From Candidatus Levyibacteriota bacterium (lineage in GTDB: Bacteria > Patescibacteriota > Microgenomatia > Levybacterales > UBA12049), in the NCBI GenBank assembly GCA_052034235.1, contig JBPOIT010000008.1, positions 532 through 64,531 on the forward strand: DNA of 64,000 nt, written 5' to 3'. The notes under the pieces are model-generated. The model was not told the origin of the DNA, ran no database searches, and saw nothing but the letters and a program-made list of their open reading frames with translations. Positions 5,731 through 64,000 of the stretch are shown piece after piece. A program made the translations under genes and the position numbers. Positions within the stretch are counted from its first letter, which is position 1; each line of letters begins with the position of its first letter.

Positions 5731-5733
5731 ATT

Positions 5734-6672: not shown

Positions 6673-6701
6673 AATTTAAAGTATATTATTATACTACTCC
6701 C

Positions 6702-7991
6702 ATGAAACCTTTTTATAAACTACTTGCAACAGCACTTCTCGTAACTACCACAAATAATATTGTTTGGTTTGCCTTAACGTTCTGGGTTTATTTAGAGACT
6801 AAAAATGTGATCTCAACATCTATTGTAGCAGGTGTTTATTTAGTTGCCGCTGCATTATCTAGTTTTTGGTTTGGCTCACTTGTTGATCATCACCGAAAAA
6901 AATATGTCATGCTTGCATCTAGTGCTGCAACGCTCATATGCTTTGCTTTAGGTTTACTTTTATATACAGTTACTCCAGAAAACGCATTTCTTTCCGTTGC
7001 AAGTCCTTCGCTTTGGTTATTTATTATAATGCTACTTTCCGGCACAGTTGCGGGAAATATTTATGGCATAGCAATCCCCACACTCGTAACAGTACTCGTT
7101 CCTGAGAAAAACCATGACAAAGCCAACGGTCTCTTTGGAAGTATGATGGGCGTAGGGTTTGCGCTTACCTCTGTTGCCAGTGGATTTATTTTGGCTTTTG
7201 GCGGGATGAAGGCAGTATTGATCATTGCATGTAGTCTTACGCTCATTGCACTTATTGTTTTGTCACTTTTTACAATTCCAGAGAAAAAAATAATTCATAC
7301 TGCTGATAAACCTAAAAAAATTGATATCAAAGGTACCATAAAAGCGATACGCGATATTCCTGGACTCTTGGCACTTATTCTTTTTAACACCTTTAATAAC
7401 TTTCTCGGCGGCGTTTTCATGGCGCTTATGGATGCGTATGGATTATCACTTGTATCAGTTCAAACCTGGGGAACTATGTGGGGTGTTTTAAGTTTGGGTT
7501 TTATTATTGGAGGACTACTTGTTGCTCGTTTTGGACTTGGCAAAAATCCTATTAAAACGCTTTTTCGAATAAATATTCTCTTGTGGATCGTTTGTGCGAT
7601 TTTTACTATTCAAGCATCCATTGTTTTGCTTTTTGTTGGCATGATGGTCTATATGATTCTTGTACCATTTGTTGAAGCAACTGAACAAACAATTATTCAA
7701 AAAGTTGTACCTCATGAACGCCAAGGTCGTGTATTTGGATTTGCTCAAAGTACTGAACAAGCAGCATCACCACTGACTGCCTTTATGATTGGGCCGATTG
7801 CCCAACTTATTTTTATACCTTTTATGACAACCGGCACTGGTGTACAGTTAATAGGTGATTGGTTTGGAGTAGGAATTGGCAGAGGACTCGCACTTGTGTT
7901 TATTGTTACTGGTATAATAGGTCTTATCGTAACGCTCATTGCAATGCGCTCCGAATCATATAAATTGCTCGCCGCAAAATATAGAGAATAA
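6702..7991 (+). CDS. MFS transporter
   Basis: 429 aa, about 12 TM helices, MFS-type loop motifs. Confidence 0.7.
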   Translation: MKPFYKLLATALLVTTTNNIVWFALTFWVYLETKNVISTSIVAGVYLVAAALSSFWFGSLVDHHRKKYVMLASSAATLICFALGLLLYTVTPENAFLSVASPSLWLFIIMLLSGTVAGNIYGIAIPTLVTVLVPEKNHDKANGLFGSMMGVGFALTSVASGFILAFGGMKAVLIIACSLTLIALIVLSLFTIPEKKIIHTADKPKKIDIKGTIKAIRDIPGLLALILFNTFNNFLGGVFMALMDAYGLSLVSVQTWGTMWGVLSLGFIIGGLLVARFGLGKNPIKTLFRINILLWIVCAIFTIQASIVLLFVGMMVYMILVPFVEATEQTIIQKVVPHERQGRVFGFAQSTEQAASPLTAFMIGPIAQLIFIPFMTTGTGVQLIGDWFGVGIGRGLALVFIVTGIIGLIVTLIAMRSESYKLLAAKYRE

Positions 7992-7996
7992 TAGGT

Positions 7997-8662
7997 ATGA
8001 ATGAAATCAAAATTGATCCGACTTGGAAAAAAGCTCTTAAACCACAATTTAGTGAAGAATACTGGATAAAACTAACCACCTTCGTTCGCGAAGAATACCA
8101 AACAAAAACTGTCTATCCGCCTGGAAAAAATATCTTTCGTGCATTTGATCTTTGTCCATTTGATAAGGTGAAAGTTGTCATCGTTGGTCAGGATCCTTAT
8201 CACGGTTTAAAACAAGCAAACGGATTGTCCTTTTCAGTAAACGACGGCATGCGCCTTCCTCCATCTCTTCAAAATATTTATCAGGAGATTAGAAATGATT
8301 TAGGTGTTACTCCTTCAACTTCGGGAGATTTGACTCGTTGGGCTGAACAAGGAGTTTTGATGCTTAATAGCGTACTTACAGTGTTAGCGGGAAGTCCTGC
8401 CTCACATGCAGGGAAGGGTTGGGAAACGTTTACTGATGCCACCATTCAAGCTTTAAACGCTCAGAAAAAGCATGTCGTCTATATGTTGTGGGGGAAATAT
8501 GCGCAAAATAAAGGGCTTGTGATTGACAGAGAAAACAATCTCGTTCTTACATCAGCACACCCGTCGCCATATTCTGTTTCACTTTTTTATAATCAACACC
8601 ACTTTAGTAAATGTAATGACTATTTAAAGAAACACGATATAACTCCTATTGATTGGACTTAA
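7997..8662 (+). CDS. ung: uracil-DNA glycosylase (family 1)
   Basis: VVIVGQDPYHG water-activating loop, GLSFSV and HPSP motifs. 221 aa. Confidence 0.85.
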   Translation: MNEIKIDPTWKKALKPQFSEEYWIKLTTFVREEYQTKTVYPPGKNIFRAFDLCPFDKVKVVIVGQDPYHGLKQANGLSFSVNDGMRLPPSLQNIYQEIRNDLGVTPSTSGDLTRWAEQGVLMLNSVLTVLAGSPASHAGKGWETFTDATIQALNAQKKHVVYMLWGKYAQNKGLVIDRENNLVLTSAHPSPYSVSLFYNQHHFSKCNDYLKKHDITPIDWT

Positions 8663-9389
8663 CGTGAAGTTGTGAAGCTTGTTTCAATAATTGGATTTCT
8701 TTTCTTGTGAGTTCACGGAATTTACCTACACCAATACCTTCTTTGCCAATTGGTCCGAATTTCACTCGATCAAGTTCCAACAGTTTGACCCCCACAGTTT
8801 CACACATTCTTCTAATCTGTCTATTTTTCCCTTCATGCAGCGTTATTTCAAGAAGTGTCACTCCTAATTTTTCTTTTAATATCGTTACTTTTGCAGGGGA
8901 GGTAATACCATCATCAAGCAACACACCATTACGAAGCGCATTCAGTTGTGATTTTTCAATTCGTCCTGCAATGACTAATCGGTAAACTTTATAGACATGA
9001 TACCTCGGGTGCGCAAGTAAATTCGTCAGTGTACCGTCGTTTGTTAAAATAATAAGTCCAGTCGTCTCTTTATCCAGTCGTCCAACAGGATAGATACGTT
9101 CTTTTGTCGGAATAAGTGCTGTGACATTCTTACGACCAAACTCGTCAGCTGTTGTTGAAACAACACCTTTCGGTTTATTCAAAAGAAAATACAACGGTTT
9201 GGGAGCACGAATCGGTTTGCCATTAAGTCGTATGTCATCGGCATGGGGGATAATCCGTGTTCCTGATTCTTTCACACGTATTCCATTTACGGTAACATTT
9301 TGATGTTTCAACACATTTGCCACTTCGCGCCTTGAACAAATGCCCAAATTAGCGAGATATTTATTTAATCTAATTGTATTTTCTTCCAT
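8646..9389 (-). CDS. rRNA pseudouridine synthase, RsuA/RluB family
   Basis: N-terminal S4 domain (RLNKYLANLGICSRREV) plus the catalytic VGRLD motif. Confidence 0.8.
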   Translation of the reverse strand: MEENTIRLNKYLANLGICSRREVANVLKHQNVTVNGIRVKESGTRIIPHADDIRLNGKPIRAPKPLYFLLNKPKGVVSTTADEFGRKNVTALIPTKERIYPVGRLDKETTGLIILTNDGTLTNLLAHPRYHVYKVYRLVIAGRIEKSQLNALRNGVLLDDGITSPAKVTILKEKLGVTLLEITLHEGKNRQIRRMCETVGVKLLELDRVKFGPIGKEGIGVGKFRELTRKEIQLLKQASQLHVKSNQ

Positions 9390-11973: not shown

Positions 11974-12568
11974 TTATGCTAACCAATCTTCTTTCGTCAA
12001 TTTATAAGTGTCATACCATGTTGACTCTCCAAGGTCAGGACCGTCATAATCTTCACGACCATATTGTTTAAAACTTGCATTCACAAGTACTGCAATTGAG
12101 CCTTTATTTTTGAGGCACGACTCTCGATTTAATAATCTCATAACCATTTTTTGAAAACGCCCATAGTAATACAACTTTTACAAGTGCGCTGGTTATGCCT
12201 TTACCCCACATATTTTTCTCTCCAATAATATAATTCAAGCACCCTGCTTTAACCCCAAATTCATTGGAGGTATCTTTTATATCGCTAATATTTATATTTC
12301 CAATAACTGTCCCATCACATTCAATAATCCAATTATATCCATCTATATTTCCCAAAATTTCTTTTAATCTATCCTTTTCACCTTCTAAAGAAACATCTGA
12401 AAAATCTGCACCTACATATTTGCCAACTTCATTGTCACTAACCCAATCAAGACTTTCCTTTGCGTATGCAATATCGGGTGTGAGTAATCGGAGTTTATGA
12501 AGTGAGTATTCAGGAACTGATAATTCTACATAACCTGGATGCGTATCGATATATTTTTGCTTATCCAT
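11974..12568 (-). pseudogene. GNAT family N-acetyltransferase interrupted by a frameshift at a T5/A5 homopolymer (about 12107-12111)
   Basis: GNAT motifs continue across two frames. Track ORF 12104..12763 ends ...KNGYEIIKSRVVPQK*. Track ORF 11974..12174 continues ...NKGSIAVLVNASFKQYGRE, the expected N..SI.V.EK.GF segment. Removing one A from the minus-strand CAAAAATAAAGG run joins them. Confidence 0.55.
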
Positions 12569-12689
12569 ACAAGAAGTATAGCAAATGAAGGTTTGGAAAA
12601 CTAAAAGTTCTACTGCTAGAGAGCCTTGACGATATTGGAACTTTTTTCTCTCAGAAAAAATTGCATTTGTATACTTTTGATCAAATTCT

Positions 12690-13547
12690 TTAATCTGCTT
12701 TAGGAATAAGATAGTCAGATACAGGTTCATCACCAGGTGGAAAAACTGTATTAAGTAATTCAATTAATTCATACTCATATTCTTTACCTTTAACGTGAAT
12801 ATAAATTGGAGATATCCGCATTTTCTCTTTATTCAAAATATAAAAGTAAACTAATACTGCACCTATAGAACTGCGTGAAAGTTCTCTATAGACTACCTCA
12901 ATTAACTCATCTTCTGTAGGTAGAGAATTCATTAAACCGAGATTATGCATAATATTTGTAATATTTATAACTACCGCCGTTTTTTTATCGTAATGTGGAT
13001 TAGAAAGTTTAGAGTTTAGAACCTCTGAAAGCTTATCTAAACTAATTACTTTTTTATTATATGTATATACATGGGCACTAGTGCATTCTATTTGAAGTTC
13101 TTTACCTTTAAATCTAATTAAATAATCCGGTGTTTCTCTTTTTTCAAATTCTATACTATATTTTATTAGTTGTGAGGCTACATGAACTTCGCAACGAAAG
13201 CCATAGTATTTAGTCTCTGTAATTTGATTATGTTGTAATAGGTCTACGTTCTTTGATCTCTTAACATTAGCGTATGCTTTATGCAACAGAGCGAGTTTTT
13301 TGACAATAGAGGGATCTTTATCATAAATAAGTTTTAATTCATCATTCAATGCAGAAATTAATGTAAACGACCATTCAAGTTCTTGAAATTTGTGTTTATT
13401 ATTTAATTCTATTAATTCGTGCAGATGCCTACCTACCATACTCCCTTGTCTATAGTGAGGAATAAAATTCTCTCCTAAATATTTACTTAAACTAGAAGAA
13501 ACTTTCGCTAAAGTACTGATAAAAGCCATCGAGTCAAAATAAGTCAT
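12690..13547 (-). CDS. hypothetical protein, 285 aa, immediately downstream of the OLD-family nuclease gene
   Basis: Strongly AT-rich gene on the same strand, 117 bp after the OLD-like gene. No recognisable domain. A possible but unconvincing PD...E motif (TPDYLIRFKGKELQIECTS). Confidence 0.5.
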   Translation of the reverse strand: MTYFDSMAFISTLAKVSSSLSKYLGENFIPHYRQGSMVGRHLHELIELNNKHKFQELEWSFTLISALNDELKLIYDKDPSIVKKLALLHKAYANVKRSKNVDLLQHNQITETKYYGFRCEVHVASQLIKYSIEFEKRETPDYLIRFKGKELQIECTSAHVYTYNKKVISLDKLSEVLNSKLSNPHYDKKTAVVINITNIMHNLGLMNSLPTEDELIEVVYRELSRSSIGAVLVYFYILNKEKMRISPIYIHVKGKEYEYELIELLNTVFPPGDEPVSDYLIPKAD

Positions 13548-13664
13548 TTTAATTATTAATATTTTTCTTATTAGCTACTTTTTATACTCTTCAAATTAAG
13601 TAAATCAAGAATAAACGTCAAACCCTAATAAAAGTGAAATTGCCGCTTGAATTTTCTTATGCCA

Positions 13665-15686
13665 TTAAGTTGAATTTAAAATTGAAATAAAATATTGACA
13701 AAGATAATTAGGAATATCATCATATTTAATTTTCTTACTAACATCAATTGCATTTTTAACTTTATTTACTCTGCTTGAATTTAAATTAGGAAATATATTC
13801 TCTAAAACACCTTCTTCGAGTATAAGTATTTTTTCTTCTTTACTAATTTCTTTAAATATATTCAATAATTCATCACTAATAGTAATCGGTGTATTTAACT
13901 GCGTTGCTCTTTCTGTGATTATATATTCAGCTATATCATTCATCTCTTTATTAAATTTTCGTGAGGTCATATTATTTTTATTCTTAATCAAATCAACTAC
14001 GGAGAGTGCATCTCTTCCATTAGTTTTACATAATATTTTTTTTAATTTATTTTCGGAAAATGTAAGTAGTTGGGAAATTTCAGAACTACCAGTTTCAATT
14101 TTGAGTCTTATCGCTTCATTATTTATTAAACGAGCTCTATCTTTACGAATTTCTCTAATATAATCTAAATCAGCAATTATAAAATTCGTTATCTTCCATT
14201 GATCTAATAATTCACGAAAACGATATAGGTTGTATTTGCTTCCTGCCTCAACTATTTCTACTTCTGCATCTGAACTAATTTCTTTTTTAATAATTTCTAA
14301 AATTTTGCTATACATTATTAAGTCTGATAGTCCTTCAACTAGTAATACTTTTTGTGTAAAGAATATTTTTTCATTATTTGTAGTATTAATATATTGAATT
14401 AGATCTTTTAGGTCTGTACTTTCAATTGATGCGTCTGGTTTTATTATATTGCTAATATTATCTTGCATATAAACCCTATAAACCTTTGCTAAAGTAGTAG
14501 TATTAATAAATTTAGGAGAATGTGTAACTATAAAGAATTGGATTTTGAATTCTTTACTCAATTCATCTATAAGCTCTATAATTACTTGTTGCCATTGAAA
14601 ATGCAGATGTAATTCTGGTTCATCTAATAATACGATGCCATTTTTGACTCCAGTTAATATTAAGCCACTAATTAAATTAAAGAGTTCTTTTTCTCCTGAG
14701 CTTAGCTTCATTGGAATTCCTGAAACTCTATAAAAATCCAGCTTGTACATATATTTATTTGGGTGGTTAATCTTGCTAACTGTGAAATTAACTTTTAAAT
14801 ACTTTAATAAATACTTTTTATAAGAATCTAGTAATTTAGATTTATGGTTCTTAAATAAATAAGCTAATTTTATAAATGAAGTATCTACAAAGGAAGTACC
14901 TATATCCCTGTTTTGGTTTATACTTTTTGCAAAATTATCTTCATAATTGGATAAGGCGCTTAAATCAATAATATTTGATGGTGAAGGTTGTGTTATCACT
15001 CTTTGAGGACCAAAATAACGTGTTACAGGATTTATGTCTAAATCAGGTATTAATATAGAAAGCTCATGAAATATATTAATATGCTTAAAAATTTCAAATA
15101 ATTTCTGTGATTTTAATAATTGCTCTGCATTAAAATTAGAGGAATCATTAATACTAAGATTAAAGGATTCATTCGCATGTAAAACTAAATTAAAGTCTTT
15201 TTCTATAAACTCACTAAAGCTAATTTCAGCTGGTATTCCATTCAATAATTCAATTAACTCTTGAGAATTGGCTACTGAAGCATATAAAAATTCTGCTATC
15301 TTTTCTTTTTTTAATATAATCTTATTAATAGTAGAAATATCTCTTCTAGATAATGATACTGTTAAAATAACACTTGAAGGCTCATTAGTATGCTCAAAAT
15401 GCTTATCTAATATGTTATTAATTAAATTGAATTGATCATGCTGATCAAAAGCTATGCTAAATAACTTATTTGAATCCGGATGGTTCATTTGTCTAAAATT
15501 CTGATTATTCTGAACCGTTACATGTTTAAACAGCACTGTATTAATAACCCCCTGAATAATTTCAAATAAATTTGTTTTCCCTCCAGAATTAGTTCCAACG
15601 AAAATATTTGTATCCATTTCAAATGAAATAATTTCCTCTGGATAATAACTCTTAATATTTTTGATTATTGCCTGACTTAAAATCAT
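13665..15686 (-). CDS. OLD-family ATP-dependent endonuclease (ABC-type ATPase + TOPRIM)
   Basis: Walker A GTNSGGKT, signature-like LSSGEKE, Walker B VLLDEPELHLH, H-loop VTHSP. C-terminal TOPRIM (LLVEGLSDL glutamate motif and IIADLD DxD motif). Very AT-rich. Confidence 0.75.
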   Translation of the reverse strand: MILSQAIIKNIKSYYPEEIISFEMDTNIFVGTNSGGKTNLFEIIQGVINTVLFKHVTVQNNQNFRQMNHPDSNKLFSIAFDQHDQFNLINNILDKHFEHTNEPSSVILTVSLSRRDISTINKIILKKEKIAEFLYASVANSQELIELLNGIPAEISFSEFIEKDFNLVLHANESFNLSINDSSNFNAEQLLKSQKLFEIFKHINIFHELSILIPDLDINPVTRYFGPQRVITQPSPSNIIDLSALSNYEDNFAKSINQNRDIGTSFVDTSFIKLAYLFKNHKSKLLDSYKKYLLKYLKVNFTVSKINHPNKYMYKLDFYRVSGIPMKLSSGEKELFNLISGLILTGVKNGIVLLDEPELHLHFQWQQVIIELIDELSKEFKIQFFIVTHSPKFINTTTLAKVYRVYMQDNISNIIKPDASIESTDLKDLIQYINTTNNEKIFFTQKVLLVEGLSDLIMYSKILEIIKKEISSDAEVEIVEAGSKYNLYRFRELLDQWKITNFIIADLDYIREIRKDRARLINNEAIRLKIETGSSEISQLLTFSENKLKKILCKTNGRDALSVVDLIKNKNNMTSRKFNKEMNDIAEYIITERATQLNTPITISDELLNIFKEISKEEKILILEEGVLENIFPNLNSSRVNKVKNAIDVSKKIKYDDIPNYLCQYFISILNST

Positions 15687-16268
15687 AAACGTAATTATAC
15701 TCCAGTATATTGACTATTACTATTTAAAATACTAAATTATTGTAAATCTTGTTTTTATAAGATATTTAGCACTTTTAAATTAAAAAATAATGAAGTGGAG
15801 GCTACCCCGAAACAGCCTCTTGTAGTCAAATAACATTCACTACGTAATGTAAGCAAAGGGACTTAAAGAATCTTTATGCAATAATAATGCTTAAAGTGTA
15901 AGCGCAAACCCTGTAAGACTATCGTAGAATAACGTATTCACTACAAAATACCTCCTAGGGGCATAACGAAAATCTTCAAAAATAATTATTTCTAATTATT
16001 TTTCGTTATGTCATACCACGTTTTAGATAACTCCAAAAAAACTAAATTACAAAAGTATCTTAAAAAAGCGTTCAGTCGTGAATTTTCTGATGTGGAAATT
16101 TTAGAAATTGAAAATTCTCTATATTTCTTTGCTAGAGTAAAAAATGAATACCTCAAATATAAGAAACGGGTTAGTCATGAAGAATAGTGAAGGGCTGACG
16201 GGCGTCAGCCAGTCGCCCCGCTTATTATACTTAAAAAAGTGGCTAAAAAACCTACTATTGATAACTTG

Positions 16269-16339
16269 CTACCGAGCCTGGATTCGAACCAGAATAAACA
16301 GCTCCAAAGGCTGTTGTCCTACCGTTAGACGACTCGGTA
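16269..16339 (-). tRNA. tRNA-Gln (anticodon UUG)
   Basis: Cloverleaf folded by hand: acceptor UACCGAG/CUCGGUA with U1-A72 and G73 (typical of bacterial tRNA-Gln), anticodon stem ACAGC/GCUGU, loop CUUUGGA, T-arm GGTTCGAATCC. CCA not encoded. Confidence 0.75.
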
Positions 16340-16474
16340 ATTTTATCTATCCATTAGGGACAGAGTACATTTTACTAAAAATATAGCTAAAAAGCCAATC
16401 TGTAAACACATTCTTATTTCTTTCATATTGAATTTTTTTCCAAATTACTGATTTGTTATAATTGCTATCATTTT

Positions 16475-17320
16475 ATGATTATCTCAGAAAAGTATCGATG
16501 GAAAAAATTATTAGCTGTATCTGATGTTGCTACTGTAAATTTATATGCAGATCAGGCTGGAGGGGAAGTAGCGATAAAAGTAGCAAAGCGCTATTTCGAA
16601 GATTATATAGGCATTGAAGCAGGTGTCCTTAGCCGTCTAAATCACCCCTCAATAGTGAAATTTATAGAAACAGGTTTGTCAGAGGAGAGTAGACCAGCTT
16701 TGGTCACACGCTTTGTTTCATCAATTGGCTATGAAAGACTTCTTTCTTTACCGGTCGACGACGCGATTACGGTAATTGAGAATGCTGCAAATGGTCTTCA
16801 GGTCGTCCATGATAGTGGCATTGTGCACAGAGATATAAAGCCATCAAATTTTGCTGTACAACCAAACAAAGAAGTGACACTGTTAGATTTTGCGACATGT
16901 GCTCCAGCACCAGACGCATTAGATTTTAGACATAAATCAATACCCAACAGAGCAATTGGCACACCTGATTATATGTCTGCTGAAGCAATGGCTGGGCAGA
17001 TTTCACCTTCAGGCGATGTCTATTCCCTTGGAGTAGTAGCTTATGAATTTCTGACACGTTCACGTGCTAATAGAGTATCTCCTGGGAGTCCTATACAAAA
17101 GTATATTGCATCACACCAAGCAATCAGTCCACAGACTTACGAGCGAGATTTGGGCAGCAGACGAACAACAATATATGATGCCTTACAACACCCACTTTGG
17201 TCAGCACTTAAATTCGCCGACCAAAACCGTCCAAGTGCTGCTGCATTTGGGGCAGCAATGAGAGAAACCTATGAACAGGCAGCTGCAGAAAGCAGACGAT
17301 CTAGACAGATTGTTCTGTAA
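16475..17320 (+). CDS. stand-alone Hanks-type Ser/Thr protein kinase
   Basis: VAIK lysine (EVAIKVAK), catalytic loop HRDIKPSN, DFA (DFG-like) and TPDYMSAE (APE-like) motifs. 281 aa with no extra domains. Confidence 0.75.
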   Translation: MIISEKYRWKKLLAVSDVATVNLYADQAGGEVAIKVAKRYFEDYIGIEAGVLSRLNHPSIVKFIETGLSEESRPALVTRFVSSIGYERLLSLPVDDAITVIENAANGLQVVHDSGIVHRDIKPSNFAVQPNKEVTLLDFATCAPAPDALDFRHKSIPNRAIGTPDYMSAEAMAGQISPSGDVYSLGVVAYEFLTRSRANRVSPGSPIQKYIASHQAISPQTYERDLGSRRTTIYDALQHPLWSALKFADQNRPSAAAFGAAMRETYEQAAAESRRSRQIVL

Positions 17321-57138: not shown

Positions 57139-57214
57139 TGGTGCTGAGAGAGTGAGTCGAACACTCATGGCCTGTTCTTCAGACAGGTGCCTTGACCACC
57201 TTGGCTATCTCAGC
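57139..57214 (-). tRNA. tRNA-Phe (anticodon GAA), CCA encoded
   Basis: Hand-folded: acceptor GCTGAGA/TCTCAGC, anticodon stem CCTGT/ACAGG, loop CTGAAGA, T-arm GAGTG-TTCGACT-CACTC, discriminator A followed by encoded CCA. Confidence 0.8.
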
Positions 57215-57890
57215 ATGTATATCTATTTTATCAAACATGGCCTCGTTTGTATATATTGTGAACGATGAATTTCTTAAGTGGAACTCCATCCAGGCTCATT
57301 TTAAACGAATTTACGATACATTTCAACTATATATCTATACTATGTATTTAAAATATAGTATACCTGAATTCACTAGAAGCCCTAGGATATATGTACTTTA
57401 GATAAATAATGATATGTAAACAATAACAAAGGCAATAGGCCAAACAACTGCACTAATAACAAGGAATATTTTTATACTTCCTAGGACGACTTTCAATATT
57501 GGTATGTCAATAAGCTGCATAGTAAGCTTATTGATATTACCATATAGATTTATATATGCATTCATACATTAATTATTACTAAATTTTAGACTAGATAAGA
57601 TCCTAATATGGATCATTACCTTCGTAGAGACATGATACTTGCTACAGAAAGAGGTTTTCAATATCCTAGAAGGTCTATGCAAGCCATAATATTCAAGAGT
57701 TAGTTTCTTATATATTTTTTCTTCTTGTTAGACAATTAGATAATTTTTATATTGTGCTTTTCCTGGCTGAGGTATAAAATATTATCCGTGAATTATAGGA
57801 AAACGCACTCTTCAGTTTTATATCTATCTACGTATGATCAAATGTTAATAAATATTTAATCTCCAGCTCGTATGATACGCATGAAGTATT

Positions 57891-58313
57891 ATGAAAAGCT
57901 TGGTTTTATTCCTCATGGCTACGCTCTTCTTTTCGATTGCCCCTCATGTAGATGCCAGAAGTGGATGTTGCTCTCAGCATGGGGGAGTACGGGCAGATGG
58001 TTGTGCCTGCAATGACGGCTCTTCACTAAGTGCCAAGTGTGCGCCTTACTATTCATGTACTGCTGCTGAACCTGTGCAGAAAAAAAACATTATAAAACCT
58101 ATATATCCCACAGCTACAAAAACACCAATCAAACTCCAGGTTAAACCGACAATGAAGAAAACAAAATTAACTCCAACACCTACTGTTTTTCTAGAAACGC
58201 CTACTATAAAACCTACTTCGAAAGCACAAAAGCCGATTACACTACAAAAAGATACCCAACAGAAGCAAAGTGGATTTTTAAACTTTTTCCTCTCACTTTT
58301 TGGAATGAACTAA
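57891..58313 (+). CDS. secreted Cys-rich / Thr-Pro-Lys-rich hypothetical protein
   Basis: Signal peptide, Cys-rich module (RSGCCSQHGG...CACNDG...KCAPYYSC), then a T/P/K low-complexity region. Confidence 0.45.
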   Translation: MKSLVLFLMATLFFSIAPHVDARSGCCSQHGGVRADGCACNDGSSLSAKCAPYYSCTAAEPVQKKNIIKPIYPTATKTPIKLQVKPTMKKTKLTPTPTVFLETPTIKPTSKAQKPITLQKDTQQKQSGFLNFFLSLFGMN

Positions 58314-58778
58314 ATGAAACAACTTGTGTATACCCTTGTATGGGGAGCCATTTTATTCGGTGGTTATATATTTTTTACCAGTGATAAAACTAGTAGTAAT
58401 GTTTCATTCTCCTCTCGATATTTCGATAGTACAGAATACTCATCTGAAGAAGAATCGAACACAATAAGTTATGAGGATGCAATCTCAGATAACTGGGATG
58501 AAATTCGAGATTATATTGATGCAACTGAAACAATAGAAGCTTGCTCTGATTCAAATGGTAACTGTTATGATCTTGAAGCAGATATTTCTGAAGGATGTAT
58601 TGATACTATCTATTTTGACAATGGGGGATATTTAAATTTTTATAGTGCATGTTTTAACGAGGATGGTTATACATATGATAGTGATGAAAATGGCGACGAT
58701 TGGGAATTTAACCTTGATATGGGTTCTTCGCTTGTTACAGAAGCAATAGATGAATGGGCATCTGAAAGCGATCTCTGA
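58314..58778 (+). CDS. membrane-anchored acidic hypothetical protein
   Basis: N-terminal TM helix and a D/E-rich, Cys-containing extracytoplasmic region. Start codon overlaps the upstream stop (TAAATG). Confidence 0.45.
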   Translation: MKQLVYTLVWGAILFGGYIFFTSDKTSSNVSFSSRYFDSTEYSSEEESNTISYEDAISDNWDEIRDYIDATETIEACSDSNGNCYDLEADISEGCIDTIYFDNGGYLNFYSACFNEDGYTYDSDENGDDWEFNLDMGSSLVTEAIDEWASESDL

Positions 58779-58842
58779 ATAGAATAAATATATTATTGCC
58801 CATCAAACAATCCTTATACAGCTTGCAATAAAAAGACCCATA

Positions 58843-59175
58843 GTGCATAATTGCCACTATGAAAAAACTCAATTGGACTATTATAATTGTCGCTCTTCTT
58901 TTGAGCCTTGCATTACTTGGTTATGTCACCCTCAACTATATTTCAAACAAAATGAGCTAAGAGTTCAAAGAGACAATATTAAACTATTAGCCCTAAAGGA
59001 AACTGAGGTTAAAGAGTGTCTTCAAAAGGTAGAGAAGGATTATCTACGTAAGTATGATTTAGTGCCCACTAAGGACTATCCTGATGCTAGGAGATGGCAT
59101 AATGATGCAGTAGGTAAGGTTGTTGAGGAAAAATATAATAACGATCGGGATTTTTGTTTGAAGCTAAACAAATAG
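58843..59175 (+). CDS. hypothetical protein (possible frameshifted secreted protein)
   Basis: 110-aa ORF. A 33-aa signal-peptide ORF (MKKLNWTIIIVALLLSLALLG...) in another frame overlaps its 5' part. Confidence 0.3.
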   Translation: MHNCHYEKTQLDYYNCRSSFEPCITWLCHPQLYFKQNELRVQRDNIKLLALKETEVKECLQKVEKDYLRKYDLVPTKDYPDARRWHNDAVGKVVEEKYNNDRDFCLKLNK

Positions 59176-59513
59176 ATCTTGTTCTTAATTCTCTTTATCT
59201 TTTTGAATTCTACTATCCTGCAACACAACCAAATTTTCCTTACTCTAGCCGAATGATTTAATATTGCTTCTAGTTTATGATGAACTTGAAGATTTTTAAA
59301 CTTTAAAGGAGTAATTGTAAATAGCATCTGAATGCAATGCGGTTCTGCAAAGATATCGAGGAGTTAAGTAAATGTAATTTTAAAAGAGTAGTACATATCC
59401 TATGTATTAAGATTATACACCCACCTGATTAATAGGATAAAATTTAATATATTTTTAATCTATCTAAGCGATAATATGCGACGAGATATATAGTTAACTC
59501 TATTCAATCAAAA

Positions 59514-59810
59514 GTGAATTATCTTGCCATTATTAGTACGCTTGCCTTATTATTTGGGATCCCTAATGGCTGGGGATATGACTATTATGTTTTATTAAGA
59601 ATTCTTATCTTTACTTCTGCATCAGTTCTTGCTTTTAATCTGTATAAAAAAAATACATTTATAATAACTATTTTTCTTGTAATAGCAATTCTTTTCAACC
59701 CGTTCTTTCCGATCCATTTACATAAAAGTGCATGGATTATTATCGATTTTATATCTGCTATAGTATTTCTCTCTTCAGTTTCATTAACTAAAAATAAACA
59801 TGGAAAATAA
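59514..59810 (+). CDS. small membrane protein
   Basis: 98 aa with three predicted TM helices. AT-rich. Confidence 0.4.
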   Translation: MNYLAIISTLALLFGIPNGWGYDYYVLLRILIFTSASVLAFNLYKKNTFIITIFLVIAILFNPFFPIHLHKSAWIIIDFISAIVFLSSVSLTKNKHGK

Positions 59811-60243
59811 TTCTACAACAATTAATAGAAATGAAAGCGATTTGGCCATAGGTACATTTGTAGAAAAATGGCCAGAATGGATTAGGTGGATACTCTTCAT
59901 CCCTGCTTCTTTTATTGTTCCTATTCTATTTTTTGCCATTCAAAAATTTACTGCAGAATTATACATGGGCACTGATGGAGGGATAATAATGGATTTTTTG
60001 GGTAACATGATTATGGGTGGGGGCATTGTTGCAATCGGCGCCATGGTTGCTCCAAGAAACCAATTTTTTATTGGAATAATTATGCTTCTTCTTGTTACCA
60101 TATTGGGAATTCTAAGTTTATTTGGAGAGCTCTCAACCAATGAGATACATCCAGTTATGGCATTATTACATGTTATTTCGTTTGTAGGTTCTGGTGTTTA
60201 TGCGCTTAATTTTATACACAAGACTGAAAAGGGAGAGGAATGA
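59800..60243 (+). CDS. membrane protein
   Basis: 147 aa with four predicted TM helices. Overlaps the previous ORF by 11 nt. Confidence 0.45.
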   Translation: MENNSTTINRNESDLAIGTFVEKWPEWIRWILFIPASFIVPILFFAIQKFTAELYMGTDGGIIMDFLGNMIMGGGIVAIGAMVAPRNQFFIGIIMLLLVTILGILSLFGELSTNEIHPVMALLHVISFVGSGVYALNFIHKTEKGEE

Positions 60244-60731
60244 TATTAAAAAAAATTATTAAAGTTATATTTATTATTTTATGTTTGATTACTTGGGTAG
60301 GAGTATTCGCATTAGATGATTACACATGGCAGGATTCGTATATTAATAATAATGATTATTTTTTGTATAAAAAGTACAGTAACGTTCTGGATTTAACTTG
60401 CATTTACTGTTGGTTTAAACAACCAGTAAATAGCATAGGCCTTGTAGATAAAAATGAAACTAAGTATTTAGGTAATAATATATATTTCATTAAACTTATA
60501 TGGGTCAACAAAGAATTTGGTTCTAGTAAGAAAACAGAAGTCTTTAGTCATTTTACCGATTGCTATAACAAGAAAAATGGATGGTTAAAGAATGGTAATA
60601 ACATTCCAGACATCAATACAGATATGAGTACTGTAAAATGGTCAAGTTTTAGCGATAATAAAGAAGTCGACGACTCACAAGCACTTTATGAAGAACAATG
60701 TAAATTTCTCCAAGAAAGATTTAAAAAATAG
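60240..60731 (+). CDS. hypothetical secreted/membrane-anchored protein
   Basis: N-terminal TM/signal segment. Asn/Tyr/Lys-rich. No family recognised. Confidence 0.45.
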   Translation: MILKKIIKVIFIILCLITWVGVFALDDYTWQDSYINNNDYFLYKKYSNVLDLTCIYCWFKQPVNSIGLVDKNETKYLGNNIYFIKLIWVNKEFGSSKKTEVFSHFTDCYNKKNGWLKNGNNIPDINTDMSTVKWSSFSDNKEVDDSQALYEEQCKFLQERFKK

Positions 60732-60757
60732 CTTCATTTTTTTTATTAAGCGAGACT

Positions 60758-60898
60758 ATGAAACTTCCCAAAGGACTAAGTGTGGACAATAGATCCGTCG
60801 TTTGGAACCCAATCCTCGAATCTATCTTCATAGTATACCAGAAATTAGTAGATTATGGATTCATGTATTTTGAAGAAGGATACGGATGTAGAAAATAG
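60758..60898 (+). CDS. small conserved ORF (46 aa), leader module copy 1
   Basis: MKLPKGLSVDNRSVVWNPILESIFIVYQKLVDYGFMYFEEGYGCRK. Paralogous at protein level to the 39-aa ORF at 61706..61825; substitutions are mostly conservative, which argues for coding selection. Confidence 0.5.
   Translation: MKLPKGLSVDNRSVVWNPILESIFIVYQKLVDYGFMYFEEGYGCRK
60776..60886 (+). repeat. direct repeat copy 1 (about 110 bp, roughly 85% identical to copy 2)
   Basis: GTGGACAATAGATCCGTCGTTTGGAACCC...TACCAGAAATTAGTAGATTATGGATTCATGTATTTTGAAGAAGGA aligns with 61709..61810. Confidence 0.7.
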
Positions 60899-60959
60899 TA
60901 GTTAAATATATAAATCTTCAAGAGTTGAAAATACTATAAGTCTGTGATATGCTTCGGTT

Positions 60960-61697
60960 ATGGCTGAAAAATATTTCCCAGGTTTTGAATTTAGAAGGAA
61001 AGAACGAGTCAATCCAATAGAAATAGTTACTTTTGTTGCTGAAAGTGGAGCTGTGCATTCAAATCCAAGAGAAACAATTCGTTTAAGTGATTTATGTGAT
61101 CTGGAAGATATTGCTGAAGAATCAACTCCCAAAGTATGGAATCAAAACAAGCTTAATCAAGAATTCACAAGTCATTTAAATAGTCTGGGTAGACAAATTA
61201 AGCATCCAGGATTAACGATGAGGCAAAGAACTATGCAATTTGTTACTCGTGAAGCAATGAGACCGAAGAATGATATCGAGAGACAATTGTTAGTAGAAAG
61301 ATATGGAGACTATGTTGCTGATGGTGCAGCTGGGGATTGTACTCGTAATCCTAATGGAACTTTTACCTTGCGAATTGGCTTCTTAGGACAAGAAGATACT
61401 GCATCAAAAGAAGAAGTACTCGATGTAATGGCACATGAATATGGACATACACTCGGAAGTGACATTTCTGATCCTACTTTCGAGGAATTAAAGGCGTACA
61501 CGTTTGCAAGATTACTTATGAGACAGACTCAAGATGTAGAATATGGCGGTACTTTATTAGATAATTCTACAGTTCATAACACAGCGCAGTTATGGCTAGA
61601 ACAACTCGTAGCGAATGGTATTAGTGAAGAAAAAGTACTTGCCCATTTAACGGGTAATAAGTTTGGCACTTCCTATCCTGATGATTATCGTAAATAA
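60960..61697 (+). CDS. HExxH metallopeptidase-like protein (ImmA/IrrE-like?)
   Basis: 245 aa with MAHEYGHTLG (HExxH) and a downstream Glu-rich helix. No further family resolution. Confidence 0.5.
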   Translation: MAEKYFPGFEFRRKERVNPIEIVTFVAESGAVHSNPRETIRLSDLCDLEDIAEESTPKVWNQNKLNQEFTSHLNSLGRQIKHPGLTMRQRTMQFVTREAMRPKNDIERQLLVERYGDYVADGAAGDCTRNPNGTFTLRIGFLGQEDTASKEEVLDVMAHEYGHTLGSDISDPTFEELKAYTFARLLMRQTQDVEYGGTLLDNSTVHNTAQLWLEQLVANGISEEKVLAHLTGNKFGTSYPDDYRK

Positions 61698-61705
61698 AAT
61701 CTACT

Positions 61706-61825
61706 ATGGTGGACAATAAGTCCGTCGTTTGGAACCCCTTGTTTGATTCTATCCTCAGATTATACCAGAAATTAGTAGATTTGGGATTCACTATTTTCGA
61801 AGAGAAGGAGGATTCCCATGAATAA
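61706..61825 (+). CDS. small conserved ORF (39 aa), leader module copy 2, translationally coupled to the PLD-like gene
   Basis: MVDNKSVVWNPLFDSILRLYQKLVDLGFTIFEEKEDSHE. Its stop overlaps the downstream ATG (cccATGAATAA). AAGGAGG SD for the downstream gene lies inside it. Confidence 0.5.
   Translation: MVDNKSVVWNPLFDSILRLYQKLVDLGFTIFEEKEDSHE
61709..61810 (+). repeat. direct repeat copy 2
   Basis: Aligns to 60782..60886 (see copy 1). Confidence 0.7.
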
Positions 61826-62258
61826 TTCACGGCTCTATGACGAAAAGACGTTCTATGATGCGTTTGTGACTGATCTAAACGCCTGTAGACAAGAGATAGT
61901 CATCGAAAGCCCTTTTATTACTTCAAGCAGGATGAGAAGCCTTAAATCCTATTTTGAAAGCCTCGTTGAAAGAAACGTAAAAGTATACGTTATTACGCGT
62001 GATCCGAAGGAGCATAGTAATGGCTATGATATTGAGGCTGAAGAGGAAATACAGTATTTTGAAGCTATCGGCGTACAAGTTTTGCTTTGCTCAGGCAATC
62101 ATCACAGGAAACTCGCTATTTTGGACCGAAAGATATTGTGGGAAGGATCACTGAATATTTTATCCCAGGCACACAGCCGGGAGATTATGAGGAGGATTGA
62201 CAGTAGGAAGATAACAGAAGAAACGATGCAGTTTCTCAAGTTGAGCAAGTTTCTCTGA
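61818..62258 (+). CDS. PLD-family (Nuc-like) HxK nuclease domain protein
   Basis: Single HxKx4D motif (HHRKLAILD) followed by GSLN. 146 aa, the size of stand-alone Nuc-type endonucleases. Confidence 0.65.
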   Translation: MNNSRLYDEKTFYDAFVTDLNACRQEIVIESPFITSSRMRSLKSYFESLVERNVKVYVITRDPKEHSNGYDIEAEEEIQYFEAIGVQVLLCSGNHHRKLAILDRKILWEGSLNILSQAHSREIMRRIDSRKITEETMQFLKLSKFL

Positions 62259-62276
62259 TTCTGGTATACTGCGCAT

Positions 62277-62462
62277 ATGAGCAACACAAAATACACAGAA
62301 GATGAATTTCAATGGGCGATAGAGGAGCTGAAGAAAAAGCATCCTGAACGAGCTACTAGAGAGCAGGCAATCAGTTTACTTGATTCTTTAGGTGAATTGC
62401 CCAAATATATGATTGAAAAGATCGCGAAGGACAAAAAATCCGGCAAACTCAGCAAAAATTAA
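62277..62462 (+). CDS. small hypothetical protein (61 aa)
   Basis: Charged helical ORF. Converges on and overlaps the XRE gene by 4 nt. Confidence 0.35.
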   Translation: MSNTKYTEDEFQWAIEELKKKHPERATREQAISLLDSLGELPKYMIEKIAKDKKSGKLSKN

Positions 62463-62659
62463 TCAACTGAGTACGAGACTTTTATTTTGAGGATTTTAAG
62501 AATTGTATCGCGAGTATCCTGAGAAGCATTTTCCTCCCCACGCTCAAACCTCGCATACCAATTGGCATTCACACCAGCTTTTTCAGCCACCTGCTGTTGC
62601 GTCAGCTTCAGTTTATGCCTAGCTTCTTTTAATAATCTCCCTAACTGCTTATCTCCCAT
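62459..62659 (-). CDS. XRE-family HTH transcriptional regulator
   Basis: LTQQQVAEKAGVNANWYARFERGE is the classic XRE HTH. 66 aa. Divergent from the 62792 operon. Confidence 0.75.
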   Translation of the reverse strand: MGDKQLGRLLKEARHKLKLTQQQVAEKAGVNANWYARFERGEENASQDTRDTILKILKIKVSYSVD

Positions 62660-62791
62660 ACGTTATACGGATAGTATAGCATTTTTATATACACTCAAAT
62701 ACATCGATGATAATATGTCTTATTCAAAAAGTCATTTATTTGAAAAAGACTATCGCCGTTGTTATAAATATCTGGTATATTTAATTAACCT

Positions 62792-63508
62792 ATGAAATCT
62801 CCTAATACCTCTTATGACCATATTCATATGAAAAATAGGAAACGAACTGAAGGCCCTGAATCCGCGTTAGTTGACTCATTTTTAATGTCATTCGAAGAGA
62901 TGTTTGGTGAAAAGGGTCTTAAATTTTCGGTTTTTATTGAACCCTATATCGATATCGGGTTTCCAGATATCATTGGTGTATTGTGGGATGAAAAATCGAC
63001 TAAAGTTTGGTCAAAAGAAAGAATGTTGATAAATAGTAAAGATATACGAATACTCAATCACTTAAGTTTACAAGATAAACTAAAAAGCGAACTTGATCTT
63101 CATAGGGAGTTGGGATATTCAGAAAGAGAAGTAGATAGAAGTATTACTCGGTTAAATAACGCTGGTTTAATTATTCCGACAAGAAATAAGTATAAAGCAT
63201 GTCCTCTTAAGAAAGTCTTTGCTCCCAGAAGAATAATTGCAATAGAGGCAAAAATGAGTGACTGGAAAGGTGCCTTTAGACAGGCAAGAATCAATAAATG
63301 GTTCGCTTCTGAGTCATATGTACTTTTCCCTGGTGAAGCTGCTAGAAAAGATATTCTTGATTATTCAAAATTTAGCCAAATTGGTGTAATAGCAAAAGAA
63401 AGGAATAATTTTGTACATCTTTCTAACTCAGAAAAAATAAACATTCCAACATCATACGGGTCATGGCTTATAAATGAATGGCTTATAAAATCATTATATT
63501 ATCAATAG
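62792..63508 (+). CDS. hypothetical protein with possible PD-(D/E)xK-like nuclease motifs and internal winged-helix-like segment
   Basis: 238 aa. Motifs EPYIDIGFPDIIGVLWDEK and IIAIEAKMSDW resemble PD...(D/E)xK. 1-nt gap to the downstream kinase gene. Confidence 0.4.
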   Translation: MKSPNTSYDHIHMKNRKRTEGPESALVDSFLMSFEEMFGEKGLKFSVFIEPYIDIGFPDIIGVLWDEKSTKVWSKERMLINSKDIRILNHLSLQDKLKSELDLHRELGYSEREVDRSITRLNNAGLIIPTRNKYKACPLKKVFAPRRIIAIEAKMSDWKGAFRQARINKWFASESYVLFPGEAARKDILDYSKFSQIGVIAKERNNFVHLSNSEKINIPTSYGSWLINEWLIKSLYYQ

Positions 63509-63509
63509 A

Positions 63510-64000
63510 ATGAGTAAATTAAATTTACAAGATGTATCAACTGCCTTTACCAATATAACTAATATCAAGCCTCTACCCTCAGGTGGTCAAAAACAAGTTT
63601 TTTCTGGAGAAAATAAAAACAATTCACTTGTAATTAAGTTATTGGATAGCATTAATAGCACAGAAAGACTACAACGAGAGATAGATGCTGTAAAAATATT
63701 AAATTCTGATAATATACCTAAAATACTGGGGCTTGGAGAAAAAGAAATAAATGGAGAAAAATATAACTACATAATCGAAGAATATATAGACGGAGAGGAT
63801 TTAGATAATCAACACAAAAAGGGTAATAAACTAAACCTTCAACAAATCGTAAATTGTTTGGAAACGATATTAGAAATATGTGTGAATGCAGAAAAAAAAG
63901 AAGTAGATATCGTTCACAGAGATATAAAGCCTGGGAATATTATACTAGATAAAAATGGTAAATTTTGGCTAATAGATTTTGGAATAGCAAGACATTTAAA
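63510..64000 (+). CDS. Hanks-type Ser/Thr protein kinase, 3'-truncated by the window end
   Basis: Gly-rich loop region, VIKLL lysine, HRDIKPGNIILD catalytic loop, DFGIAR. Runs off the window and is absent from the ORF track because it has no stop. Confidence 0.7.
   Translation, partial: MSKLNLQDVSTAFTNITNIKPLPSGGQKQVFSGENKNNSLVIKLLDSINSTERLQREIDAVKILNSDNIPKILGLGEKEINGEKYNYIIEEYIDGEDLDNQHKKGNKLNLQQIVNCLETILEICVNAEKKEVDIVHRDIKPGNIILDKNGKFWLIDFGIARHL

Follow-up and report, generated by a model that had tools for sequence, protein, structure and literature searches.

The right end of the 64,000-nucleotide stretch of the Candidatus Levyibacteriota contig JBPOIT010000008.1 that was analysed here (the window) carries a gene for a nuclease-like protein followed by a gene for a Hanks-type Ser/Thr kinase, which is cut by the window edge. 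This arrangement raises the question of whether the pair belongs to a defence system and, if so, which genes such a system comprises. The initial annotation of the window proposed a defence or abortive-infection module in which both genes stand under an XRE-family switch, within an island that also includes upstream PLD and HExxH genes.

Gene content and local neighbours of the cassette

The proposed gene layout was found as described. An XRE-family HTH gene (62459-62659, minus strand, 66 aa) is divergent from a plus-strand ORF of 238 aa encoding the nuclease-like protein (gene 1, 62792-63508). The stop codon of the latter (TAG, 63506-63508) is separated by 1 nt from the ATG (63510) of the kinase gene (gene 2, plus strand), of which the window contains the part encoding the first 163 aa (63510-64000). 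Extension of the contig to the longer locus L001 recovered the complete kinase of 286 aa, whose gene runs on to the window-equivalent position 64370 (L001 6341-7201), and a downstream gene for a 399-aa TIM-barrel protein (gene 3) located just past the window edge. The unit seen on L001 is thus made of three abutting genes encoding the nuclease-like protein, the kinase and the TIM-barrel protein, of which the window holds only the 5' part; throughout the cassette, genes 1-3 abut or overlap. A blastn comparison of L001 with its closest relative, L002, gave a single block (L001 5575-9163, 77% identity) starting at window position 62744. Homology between the two loci therefore begins 48 nt ahead of the nuclease ATG, and this conserved upstream segment (62744-62791, plus strand) marks the left edge of the shared module. 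The features described in the window are conserved genes with matches at family level, which sets them apart from chance ORFs. In the window, the cassette lies within a lower-GC stretch past a tRNA-Phe gene, for which we make no att-site claim because the 3' end of the tRNA faces away from the island. A Replic_Relax gene is found downstream of the cassette.

The XRE gene itself is well recognized (HTH_31, 4.5e-11, 43 bits for a cut-off of 27; HTH_3, 1.4e-8; PADLOC capH, 1.2e-8). An XRE homologue is found upstream of the nuclease gene in one of 140 loci and is absent from the other 139, and the gene lies outside the L001/L002 homology block, which does not support an XRE switch as part of the system. 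It is a local neighbour, possibly a local regulator, and not a conserved component. The XRE/nuclease intergenic region contains an inverted repeat, GTCTTATTCAAA-N10-TTTGAAAAAGAC (62717-62750, 12-nt arms, 92% complementary), which could be an operator, with a chance origin also possible in this AT-rich region. The repeat overlaps a weak minus-strand promoter-like site (62735-62707), and such sites are no commoner here than in shuffled sequence. The upstream PLD-like gene (61818-62258, PLDc_2, 1.1e-12) and the gene for the HExxH protein (60960-61697, sub-threshold metallopeptidase matches only) do not travel with the cassette either; both are local neighbours and not parts of it. The second Hanks kinase pointed out in the window (16475-17320) is genuine (Pkinase, 3e-25), but it belongs to an unrelated kinase lineage.

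On L001, a convergent fourth gene (8397-9161, 254 aa) encodes a protein with phosphatase-like motifs (FAIADGV, GASTL, SSDGV and DDxSxIxI) that are conserved in three homologues. It has no match in Pfam, NCBIfam or the PDB, and PP2C and SpoIIE profiles give it no support. Only six loci were found to have the gene, and they come from a few closely related cassettes (L001, L002, L080 and L074-L076). Its PP2C-like motifs make it a candidate phosphatase, limited to the Patescibacteria lineage of the window. A fourth gene conserved in all cassette loci was not found.

Predicted folds and activities of the three proteins

Gene 1 had been read as a restriction-endonuclease-like protein of no known family with an inserted winged-helix-like segment. 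The 238-aa protein contains the motifs GFPDII (P58, D59) and IEAK (E152, K154), and residues E23, P58, D59, E152, K154, Q164, W170, F171 and S173 are invariant in an alignment of 49 homologues with a mean column identity of about 34%. The catalytic signature of PD-(D/E)xK enzymes is present, with the helix-1 acid, the strand-2 D and the strand-3 (D/E)xK. The AF2 model (pLDDT 91.8) displays the order a1-b1-b2-[wHTH]-b3-a2-b4 (helix 22-38, strands 44-49 and 60-65, insert 67-136, strand 145-153, helix 158-168, strand 174-179), and the alpha-beta-beta-beta-alpha-beta topology of the core was judged by this order of elements only. The insert is a MarR-like wHTH (about residues 67-136) that separates the 'PD' strand from the 'ExK' strand. 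It was matched to MexR/MarR chains by a PDB profile search (MexR 1lnw, E 4.1e-4, residues 64-141) and to ArsR, MarR and DtxR wHTH domains by Foldseek (probability 1.0), while Pfam and NCBIfam gave sub-threshold matches only. The inserted winged helix is thus borne out.

One search returned 90 homologues of gene 1, and a profile search returned 491 clusters at 50% identity (E <= 1e-30). The full family matched no Pfam, NCBIfam, PHROG or PADLOC family above threshold, so that the absence of a known family holds in these four collections, and a profile restricted to the core (A3) found nothing in Pfam or in PDB sequences. This core profile matches a minimal family devoid of the wHTH (A4; hhalign 99.1%, E 1.3e-18), whose invariant set is E17, E43, D52, E66-x-K68 and Q78. 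Among 25 A4 members, 20 match NucS_C over the catalytic strands (best E 6.8e-4, all below the gathering score); HSDR_N and DUF234 are matched by four and three A4 members, respectively, again below gathering scores. Gene 1 shares the motif order E ... D ... ExK with the NucS/EndoMS C-terminal domain (PF01939), but it lacks the NucS N-terminal domain and has its own wHTH insertion as well as a conserved C-terminal 'SYGSWLxNEW' helix that is specific to the gene 1 family. Its tie to curated nuclease families appears to be transitive, through A4, and weak to NucS_C. The motif set, the order of strands and helices and the A4 link to NucS_C, HSDR_N and DUF234 back the initial reading, and we infer from sequence and model that the gene 1 product is nuclease-like and of the PD-(D/E)xK type, its nuclease activity being a prediction.

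The kinase predicted at the window edge was confirmed. The 163-aa translation contains the HRDIKPGN and DFG motifs, and Pkinase (PF00069) matches both the fragment (3.9e-17) and the full 286 aa (7.9e-28, 98 bits for a cut-off of 31.7), the latter above the gathering score. The catalytic residues are intact: among 51 cassette kinases, G26, K43, E57, H136-R137-D138, K140, N143, D156-F157-G158, the activation-loop T169, E186, D200 and R265 are conserved at 95% or more. By these residues, gene 2 is predicted to encode a minimal, catalytically competent Hanks-type Ser/Thr kinase. The kinase matches the PADLOC PD-T4-6 models at about 1e-27. These models also match mad6 and PknB-type kinases, as well as a kinase in every S. 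thermophilus genome (PMC11514479), and the match therefore reflects the kinase fold and not membership. We rejected a PD-T4-6 identity since the model matches are unspecific and the same pair of genes borders the kinase wherever sequence suffices; PD-T4-6 is a stand-alone kinase gene, whereas the cassette kinase is never alone where flanks are available. Three other identities were discarded: MAD6 (NCBIfam antiphage_MADS6, 90.7 bits for a cut-off of 460), PglW (NCBIfam BREX_PglW equivalog, 51.1 bits for a cut-off of 990) and CapK/CapS, CapK being an anti-sigma-factor-type kinase.

The 399-aa product of gene 3 is the most conserved member of the cassette. Its AF2 model (pLDDT 92.9) consists of a (beta/alpha)8 TIM barrel, with strands and helices alternating over residues 1-270, followed by a C-terminal helical bundle. 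Foldseek searches of the PDB and BFVD returned many TIM barrels with a probability of about 1.0, E values of at least 1e-3 and TM scores of 0.3-0.5, all of them generic barrels that point to no specific superfamily. Residues Q6, S30, D56, Q58, Y60, Y175 and R238 are invariant, and in the model these polar and aromatic residues lie at the usual active-site place of TIM-barrel enzymes. The protein has no match in Pfam, NCBIfam, PHROG, PADLOC or PDB sequences; designer PPR repeats, returned by the PDB-sequence search, were rejected as spurious summed scores (each domain E > 100). No link to the TGT/DpdA or radical-SAM families was found by PDB-sequence profile and Foldseek searches. Some weak fold matches are AP and UV-damage endonucleases, and these are no better than the matches to glycosidases and aldolases.

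Conservation, spread and genomic context of the triad

The three genes are co-inherited, and the triad is essentially obligate. Anchoring on gene 1 gave 63 genome loci (53 canonical, 2 rearranged, 5 at contig ends, 1 uninformative and 2 decayed), with the triad intact or contig-truncated in 60 of the 62 informative ones. Gene order and strand are constant in the canonical loci, and the two decayed cassettes retained the nuclease gene and lost the kinase. Anchoring on gene 3 gave 80 metagenome loci, among which 67 are complete (67/67 informative) and 13 are cut by contig ends, without exception to the triad. The pairwise identity matrices of the three proteins are correlated (r = 0.68-0.76). 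Linkage of the kinase to the nuclease gene in other genomes, on which the initial proposal had been staked beforehand, was upheld, the pair being obligate there.

The cassette appears to be self-contained and horizontally mobile. It is distributed patchily over ten or more phyla, which include both Bacteria and Archaea, with carriers among Patescibacteria, Acidobacteriota, Planctomycetota, Myxococcota, Bacillus, haloarchaea and Asgard archaea. Four plasmid matches were obtained, and the three plasmids retrieved (from Bacillus mycoides, Polaromonas pPNAP03 and Natribaculum) all contain the triad. Culturable carriers include Nonlabens sp. YIK11 (LBMJ01000001, region 756726-777925), Bacillus mycoides SIN2.2 (plasmid NZ_CP128131, 65234-67922), Polaromonas naphthalenivorans (pPNAP03, NC_008759, about 148390-150842), Citreicoccus inhibens and Nannocystis punicea. 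In IMG/VR, only four contigs carry the cassette, each with the triad, and no match was detected among 50,697 phage genomes.

BREX operons of four phyla contain the cassette, which is inserted there between the genes for the PglX(I) methyltransferase and BrxHI. These embedded cassettes (loci L006, L009, L012 and L047) have the same orientation as the neighbouring genes and overlap them, and no other kinase gene was found in the four loci. Between these loci, the BREX proteins share 51-69% identity and the proteins of the cassette 35-60%, a similar degree of divergence. About 90% of cassette loci have no BREX genes within 10 kb, and the L009 cassette is most closely related to a solo cassette from Desulfuromusa. 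Among the genes around the cassettes, the families that recur are Phage_integrase, N6_Mtase, HSDR_N, AbiEii/AbiEi, Mrr_cat, ResIII and NA-iREase1, and the Bacillus plasmid cassette adjoins a recombinase and an integrase. The cassette is also found as a stand-alone insertion among housekeeping genes, and the genes around many cassette loci are ordinary housekeeping genes. Location within BREX has been published as a predictor of a function in defence (10.1101/2024.01.29.577857). The BREX embedding and the integrase, restriction-modification, AbiE and Mrr neighbours point towards the defence setting first proposed for the kinase and nuclease pair. Genes 1 and 3 matched no PADLOC model, embedded 'PDC' candidates included. 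With most subscription journals lying outside our literature search, we found no description of a cassette combining a kinase, a TIM barrel and a restriction endonuclease.

Proposed role and rival explanations

Since the triad is kept intact in a wide range of phyla of Bacteria and Archaea, and likewise on plasmids and in BREX loci, we infer a defence role and regard the cassette as a strong candidate for a new system of anti-phage defence. The reading that we prefer, with a probability of about one half, is that of a horizontally mobile three-gene system involved in anti-phage/anti-mobile-element conflict and equipped with a kinase switch. The mechanism would probably be that of a phosphorylation-gated nuclease. 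The gene 1 protein would bind DNA via its inserted winged helix, and the kinase, acting as a switch, would autophosphorylate on a trigger and then phosphorylate its partners or host proteins. Once licensed by this phosphorylation, the nuclease could cleave DNA and/or the TIM-barrel enzyme could turn to its substrate, either a small molecule or a nucleic acid, with restriction or abortive infection as the outcome. For the Patescibacteria lineage of the window, the fourth gene with PP2C-like motifs could reset the switch, and the divergent XRE gene would do no more than adjust transcription locally. More tentatively, the cassette may be an autonomous, undescribed immune system in which the kinase gates two effectors, the nuclease recognises DNA, the TIM barrel has a new chemistry and the triad has replaced PglW in some BREX lineages. 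Such a chemistry could, for example, modify DNA, or produce or break down a phosphorylated or glycosidic small molecule.

PglW and some DndF proteins display a layout of restriction-endonuclease domain, S/T kinase and wHTH, PglW being a fused NERD-pseudokinase-kinase-wHTHx3-iSTAND protein (PMC12839542). The cassette resembles PglW and the NERD-kinase DndF proteins by its predicted PD-(D/E)xK module, active-type Ser/Thr kinase, winged helix and defence-linked context. It is conceivable, if unlikely, that the cassette is not autonomous and is a split, miniature counterpart of PglW that provides BREX-type or other partner systems with a sensor or back-up effector hub. Its same-strand, overlapping placement between PglX(I) and BrxHI in L006, L009, L012 and L047 is consistent with this, as are the absence of a further kinase gene found in these loci, where BrxHI is otherwise the partner of PglW in type-2 BREX (PMC12839542), and the similar divergence of BREX and cassette proteins. 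However, most loci (about 90%) have no BREX genes nearby, the L009 cassette is closest to the solo one of Desulfuromusa, and the 51 bits of the kinase are far from the PglW cut-off of 990. Moreover, in contrast to PglW, the cassette is made of separate small genes, its wHTH is inserted in the nuclease, which is not NERD by HMMER (no Pfam match), and it has no pseudokinase and no iSTAND, while its obligate TIM-barrel partner is absent from PglW. The nuclease and TIM-barrel proteins have no PADLOC PglW match.

The presence of the cassette on plasmids and islands as a small, tightly coupled operon would also fit a kinase-based toxin-antitoxin or addiction module that stabilises these elements and has no dedicated antiviral role. 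Kinase/phosphatase triads can be toxin-antitoxin systems, as shown by KKP (PfkA/PfkB/PfpC) of Pf prophages, a tripartite toxin-antitoxin and anti-phage system (PMC11341870). Compared by description, KKP is likewise a small mobile cassette around Ser/Thr kinase activity, and the Patescibacteria version of our cassette adjoins the convergent gene with phosphatase-like motifs; KKP contains no nuclease or TIM barrel, whereas the cassette has one kinase and a putative, lineage-specific phosphatase. We consider this explanation rather improbable: the cassettes have no recognisable antitoxin in common, the gene with phosphatase-like motifs having been found in only six loci, and two decayed cassettes kept the nuclease without the kinase, which is unexpected for an unopposed nuclease toxin. 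It also overlaps with the main explanation, since KKP itself defends. Less probable again is that the gene 1 product chiefly regulates transcription, in the manner of MarR, or senses DNA, that its nuclease-like domain is non-catalytic and that its phosphorylation by the kinase controls expression. The wHTH is the only part of the protein with database matches, NCBI lists one homologue as a MarR-family regulator, gene 1 comes first in the operon like many defence regulators, and CapK/CapS provides a precedent for kinase-to-repressor control (PMC13373217). Nevertheless, E23, D59, E152, K154 and Q164 are invariant in 49 sequences of about 34% mean column identity, and Polaromonas-type relatives that have no wHTH have kept the triad along with E, D, ExK and Q. 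Catalytic residues are normally lost from nuclease domains that have become inactive. Finally, the weak matches of the minimal family to NucS_C and of the TIM barrel to AP and UV-damage endonucleases could suggest a housekeeping DNA-repair signalling module, with a NucS-like endonuclease and an AP-endonuclease-like TIM barrel under kinase control. The patchy, horizontal distribution, including plasmids and BREX embedding, makes this very improbable, and glycosidases and aldolases are at least equally good fold matches. Endo IV and UVDE have multi-His/Glu metal sites, and the invariant residues of the TIM-barrel protein are unlike these.

Two of the three protein families of the cassette are without annotation in Pfam, NCBIfam, PHROGs and PADLOC. 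As things stand, the kinase would receive the wrong label 'PD-T4-6', and 'MarR regulator' is the label given to homologues of the nuclease-like protein. If the cassette is a defence system, it would be a compact and very widespread three-gene module of bacteria, archaea and plasmids, and a minimal, genetically tractable model for the control of nucleases by eukaryotic-like kinases in prokaryotic immunity, which is likewise a standing question for PglW (BREX type 2) and DndF. The TIM-barrel protein could bring to light a new chemistry of effectors or sensors and, if the triad has replaced PglW in some BREX lineages, BREX kinase signalling would be tied to a minimal module that can be dissected.

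Extent and distribution of the cassette

The initial annotation placed its three ORFs correctly at the end of the window. These are a 66-aa XRE gene (62459-62659, minus strand; Pfam HTH_31, 4.5e-11), a nuclease-like ORF of 238 aa ending in TAG (gene 1; 62792-63508, plus strand) and, 1 base past this stop, the plus-strand ATG at 63510 of a Hanks kinase (gene 2), which runs off the window and whose 163-aa fragment matches Pfam Pkinase (3.9e-17). Extension of the contig had been proposed. An exact-protein look-up retrieved L001, a 13.4-kb contig overlapping the window end (window position = L001 position + 57169), which gave the full kinase (286 aa; L001 6341-7201, window-equivalent 63510-64370) and, 3 nt past its stop, a 399-aa TIM-barrel protein (gene 3; L001 7205-8404, window-equivalent 64374-65573).

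A genome-collection scan anchored on the 238-aa family yielded 63 loci from Patescibacteria, Acidobacteriota, Actinomycetota, Planctomycetota, Myxococcota, Zixibacteria, Verrucomicrobiota, Clostridia, Thermoplasmatales and Promethearchaeota. The nuclease-like gene is followed on one strand by abutting kinase (~285 aa) and TIM (~400 aa) genes in 53 of them; the kinase-TIM pair is inverted in 2, a contig end is reached with an order so far consistent in 5, and 1 is uninformative. The last 2 are decayed cassettes, an orphan nuclease-like gene (L033 10699-11181) and a nuclease-like gene followed by a kinase reduced to its N-terminal 130 aa (L050 9749-10687), and in both the nuclease gene outlasted the kinase and TIM genes. 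Among 80 metagenome loci anchored on the 399-aa protein, 67 carry the whole triad and 13 are cut by a contig end, with 0 exceptions. The complete triad was also present in all 3 plasmids fetched (of 4 matches) and in 4 IMG/VR contigs, and 50,697 deposited phage genomes gave no match. Pairwise identity among the proteins averages 35% (gene 1), 42% (gene 2) and 47% (gene 3), and since the distance matrices of the three proteins correlate (r = 0.68-0.76), we conclude that their genes are inherited together. No universal fourth gene was found among cassette loci; the real unit is the triad.

Its limits can be seen against the closest relative, L002, whose DNA homology to L001 (77% identity) is confined to positions 5575-9163 of that contig, a block that opens 48 nt before gene 1 and closes at the start codon of a convergent fourth gene. 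The XRE gene, initially taken as the switch of the operon, lies outside this block and has an upstream homologue in only 1 of 140 loci; we no longer count it as part of the system. The same applies to the PLD and HExxH genes, formerly included in a compact defence island, which are also outside the block and accompany the cassette in no other locus. The PLD-like protein (61818-62258, 146 aa) matches PLDc_2 (1.1e-12) and the C-terminus of PADLOC MkoC (2e-12), with a weak NucT match, and the HEYGH-motif protein (60960-61697, 245 aa) has only sub-threshold metallopeptidase matches. A lysine-rich ORF (62277-62462, 61 aa) converges on the XRE gene, sharing 4 nt with its 3' end, and has no family match in Pfam, PADLOC, NCBIfam or PHROGs. 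An inverted repeat between the XRE gene and gene 1 (62717-62750) may be the XRE operator, or a chance occurrence in AT-rich DNA.

The fourth gene (L001 8397-9161, minus strand, window-equivalent 65566-66330; 254 aa) overlaps the end of gene 3 by 8 nt. Its placement and convergent orientation are the same in L002 and L080, and also in L074-76 at 33% identity (E 2e-25). Its motifs FAIADGV, GASTL, SSDGV and DDxSxIxI are reminiscent of PP2C phosphatases; no profile support for this reading was found. Beyond it, L001 encodes membrane proteins, TPR proteins and, near the contig end, a Replic_Relax gene (12386-13267).

The three proteins

Nine residues are invariant in 49 gene 1 homologues: E23, P58, D59, E152, K154, Q164, W170, F171 and S173. 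The AF2 model (pLDDT 91.8) runs helix, strand, strand, insert (67-136), strand, helix, strand, the PD-(D/E)xK order, in which D59 starts strand 2 and the ExK lies in strand 3. The insert, three helices and a hairpin, is a MarR/ArsR-type winged helix, judged by a PDB profile match (4e-4) and a Foldseek assignment probability of 1.0. The full protein gives solely sub-threshold winged-helix matches in Pfam (residues 74-135), and the core with the insert removed has no match in Pfam or PDB. Judged by sequence comparison, distant cassettes whose first gene is devoid of the wHTH appear to provide the decisive link to nuclease families. On Polaromonas naphthalenivorans plasmid pPNAP03, this gene (L068 4697-5206, missing from the plasmid's distributed gene table) encodes 169 aa and keeps the E, E, D, ExK and Q. 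Its family, with about 80 homologues of ~171 aa and no Pfam annotation among them, can be aligned with the 238-aa family core at an hhalign probability of 99.1% (E 1.3e-18). Pfam NucS_C is matched over the catalytic strands by 20 of 25 members (best E 6.8e-4, below gathering score), and other members match HSDR_N and DUF234, all below gathering scores; all three are PD-(D/E)xK families. The earlier proposal of a nuclease-like protein with a winged-helix insert therefore holds for fold order, invariant residues and wHTH, while its family matches are only transitive and below gathering scores. That gene 1 is a nuclease-fold protein with an inserted wHTH is well supported, and its invariant residues suggest that it may be catalytic.

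Gene 2 encodes a minimal Hanks kinase in which the glycine loop, K43, E57, HRD, K140, N143, DFG, activation-loop T169, APE glutamate, D200 and R265 show at least 95% conservation. From this catalytic set and T169, we read it as a presumably active 'RD' kinase, probably regulated by activation-loop phosphorylation. The PADLOC labels PD-T4-6 and mad6 were rejected as matches to the fold only; the scores of gene 2 lie far below the curated MAD6 and PglW cut-offs of NCBIfam, and PD-T4-6 models match a kinase found in every S. thermophilus genome (PMC11514479).

Gene 3 is the most conserved partner (45-58% identity across phyla, >700 homologues), and no match was found in Pfam, NCBIfam, PHROG, PADLOC or PDB sequences. 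In its AF2 model (pLDDT 92.9), residues 1-270 form a (beta/alpha)8 barrel and a helical bundle comes after it, and Foldseek returns solely generic barrels (E >= 1e-3): glycosidases, aldolases, PRPP- and phosphate-binding barrels and AP endonucleases. Residues Q6, G8, S30-P31, D56-P57-Q58, Y60, P112, Y175, G232 and R238, kept even at 21-30% identity, look like the active site of an enzyme.

Genomic surroundings

The triad is embedded in BREX operons at 4 loci from 4 phyla (L006, L009, L012 and L047), co-oriented and overlapping, in the order BrxC, 503-aa protein, PglX(I), triad, BrxHI, PglZ, BrxA (L009 1898-18384; each named BREX protein at E = 0 in PADLOC). No kinase gene besides that of the cassette was found in these four loci. 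The subtype looks hybrid, with a PglXI-type methyltransferase and BrxHI. The 503-aa protein weakly resembles pAgo-associated SIR2/PNTD proteins (E about 4e-12). A PLD-helicase and a TIR/RtcR-like protein are among the other neighbours, and the only Pfam families that recur in the 133 nearest neighbours are Phage_integrase, N6_Mtase, HSDR_N, AbiEii/AbiEi, Mrr_cat, HARE-HTH, ResIII, NA-iREase1, rve_3 and DUF4276. A recombinase and an integrase adjoin the triad on a Bacillus mycoides plasmid, and in Nonlabens and Desulfuromusa it is a bare three-gene insertion among housekeeping genes. Five loci (L003 15017-15676, L016 440-1057, L038 12858-13481, L042 12723-13391 and L046 12847-13452) share, in variable orientation and at most 3 kb from the cassette, a protein family of about 200-220 aa without PADLOC match.

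The window cassette sits in a lower-GC stretch (0.33-0.34 vs 0.38-0.39) starting after tRNA-Phe (57139-57214, minus strand). A run of small genes without Pfam matches follows this tRNA. Together, 57139-64000 and L001 1-13376 probably represent an integrated mobile element; neither an integrase nor an att repeat was identified there. A second low-GC island (12000-17320, GC 0.27-0.30) holds an OLD-family nuclease (13665-15686, minus strand; AAA_21/AAA_15 plus OLD-like TOPRIM), tRNA-Gln (16268-16339, minus strand) and a stand-alone Hanks kinase (16475-17320, 281 aa; PADLOC PD-T4-6, 9e-35), which has only 34% identity to the cassette kinase, over 77 aa.

A candidate defence system

A position inside a BREX, DISARM or type I R-M locus predicts defence function (10.1101/2024.01.29.577857). 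A restriction-endonuclease domain, an S/T kinase and a wHTH form the 'grammar' of PglW and some DndF, hubs for which sensor/effector action on DNA and proteins and a suicidal back-up response were proposed (PMC12839542), and the cassette has the same combination. Because of this shared grammar and the BREX embedding, a phosphorylation-gated defence or abortive-infection system is our best explanation, with a probability of about 0.5. Three rival readings overlap with it: the triad could serve as a BREX-dependent accessory module or be purely an addiction module, and gene 1 could have a regulator role. A repair module is a separate rival.

In the literature searched we found no description of this triad; the gene 1 and gene 3 families are absent from PADLOC 2.0, embedded 'PDC' candidates included, and the 2026 BREX survey (PMC12839542) mentions neither a TIM barrel nor a stand-alone kinase cassette. 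Given the PglW and DndF precedent, we judge the cassette not to be categorically new. As a phosphorylation-gated defence system, it would be switched by the kinase and act on DNA through the wHTH-nuclease as effector, with the TIM barrel as a second enzyme or a sensor.
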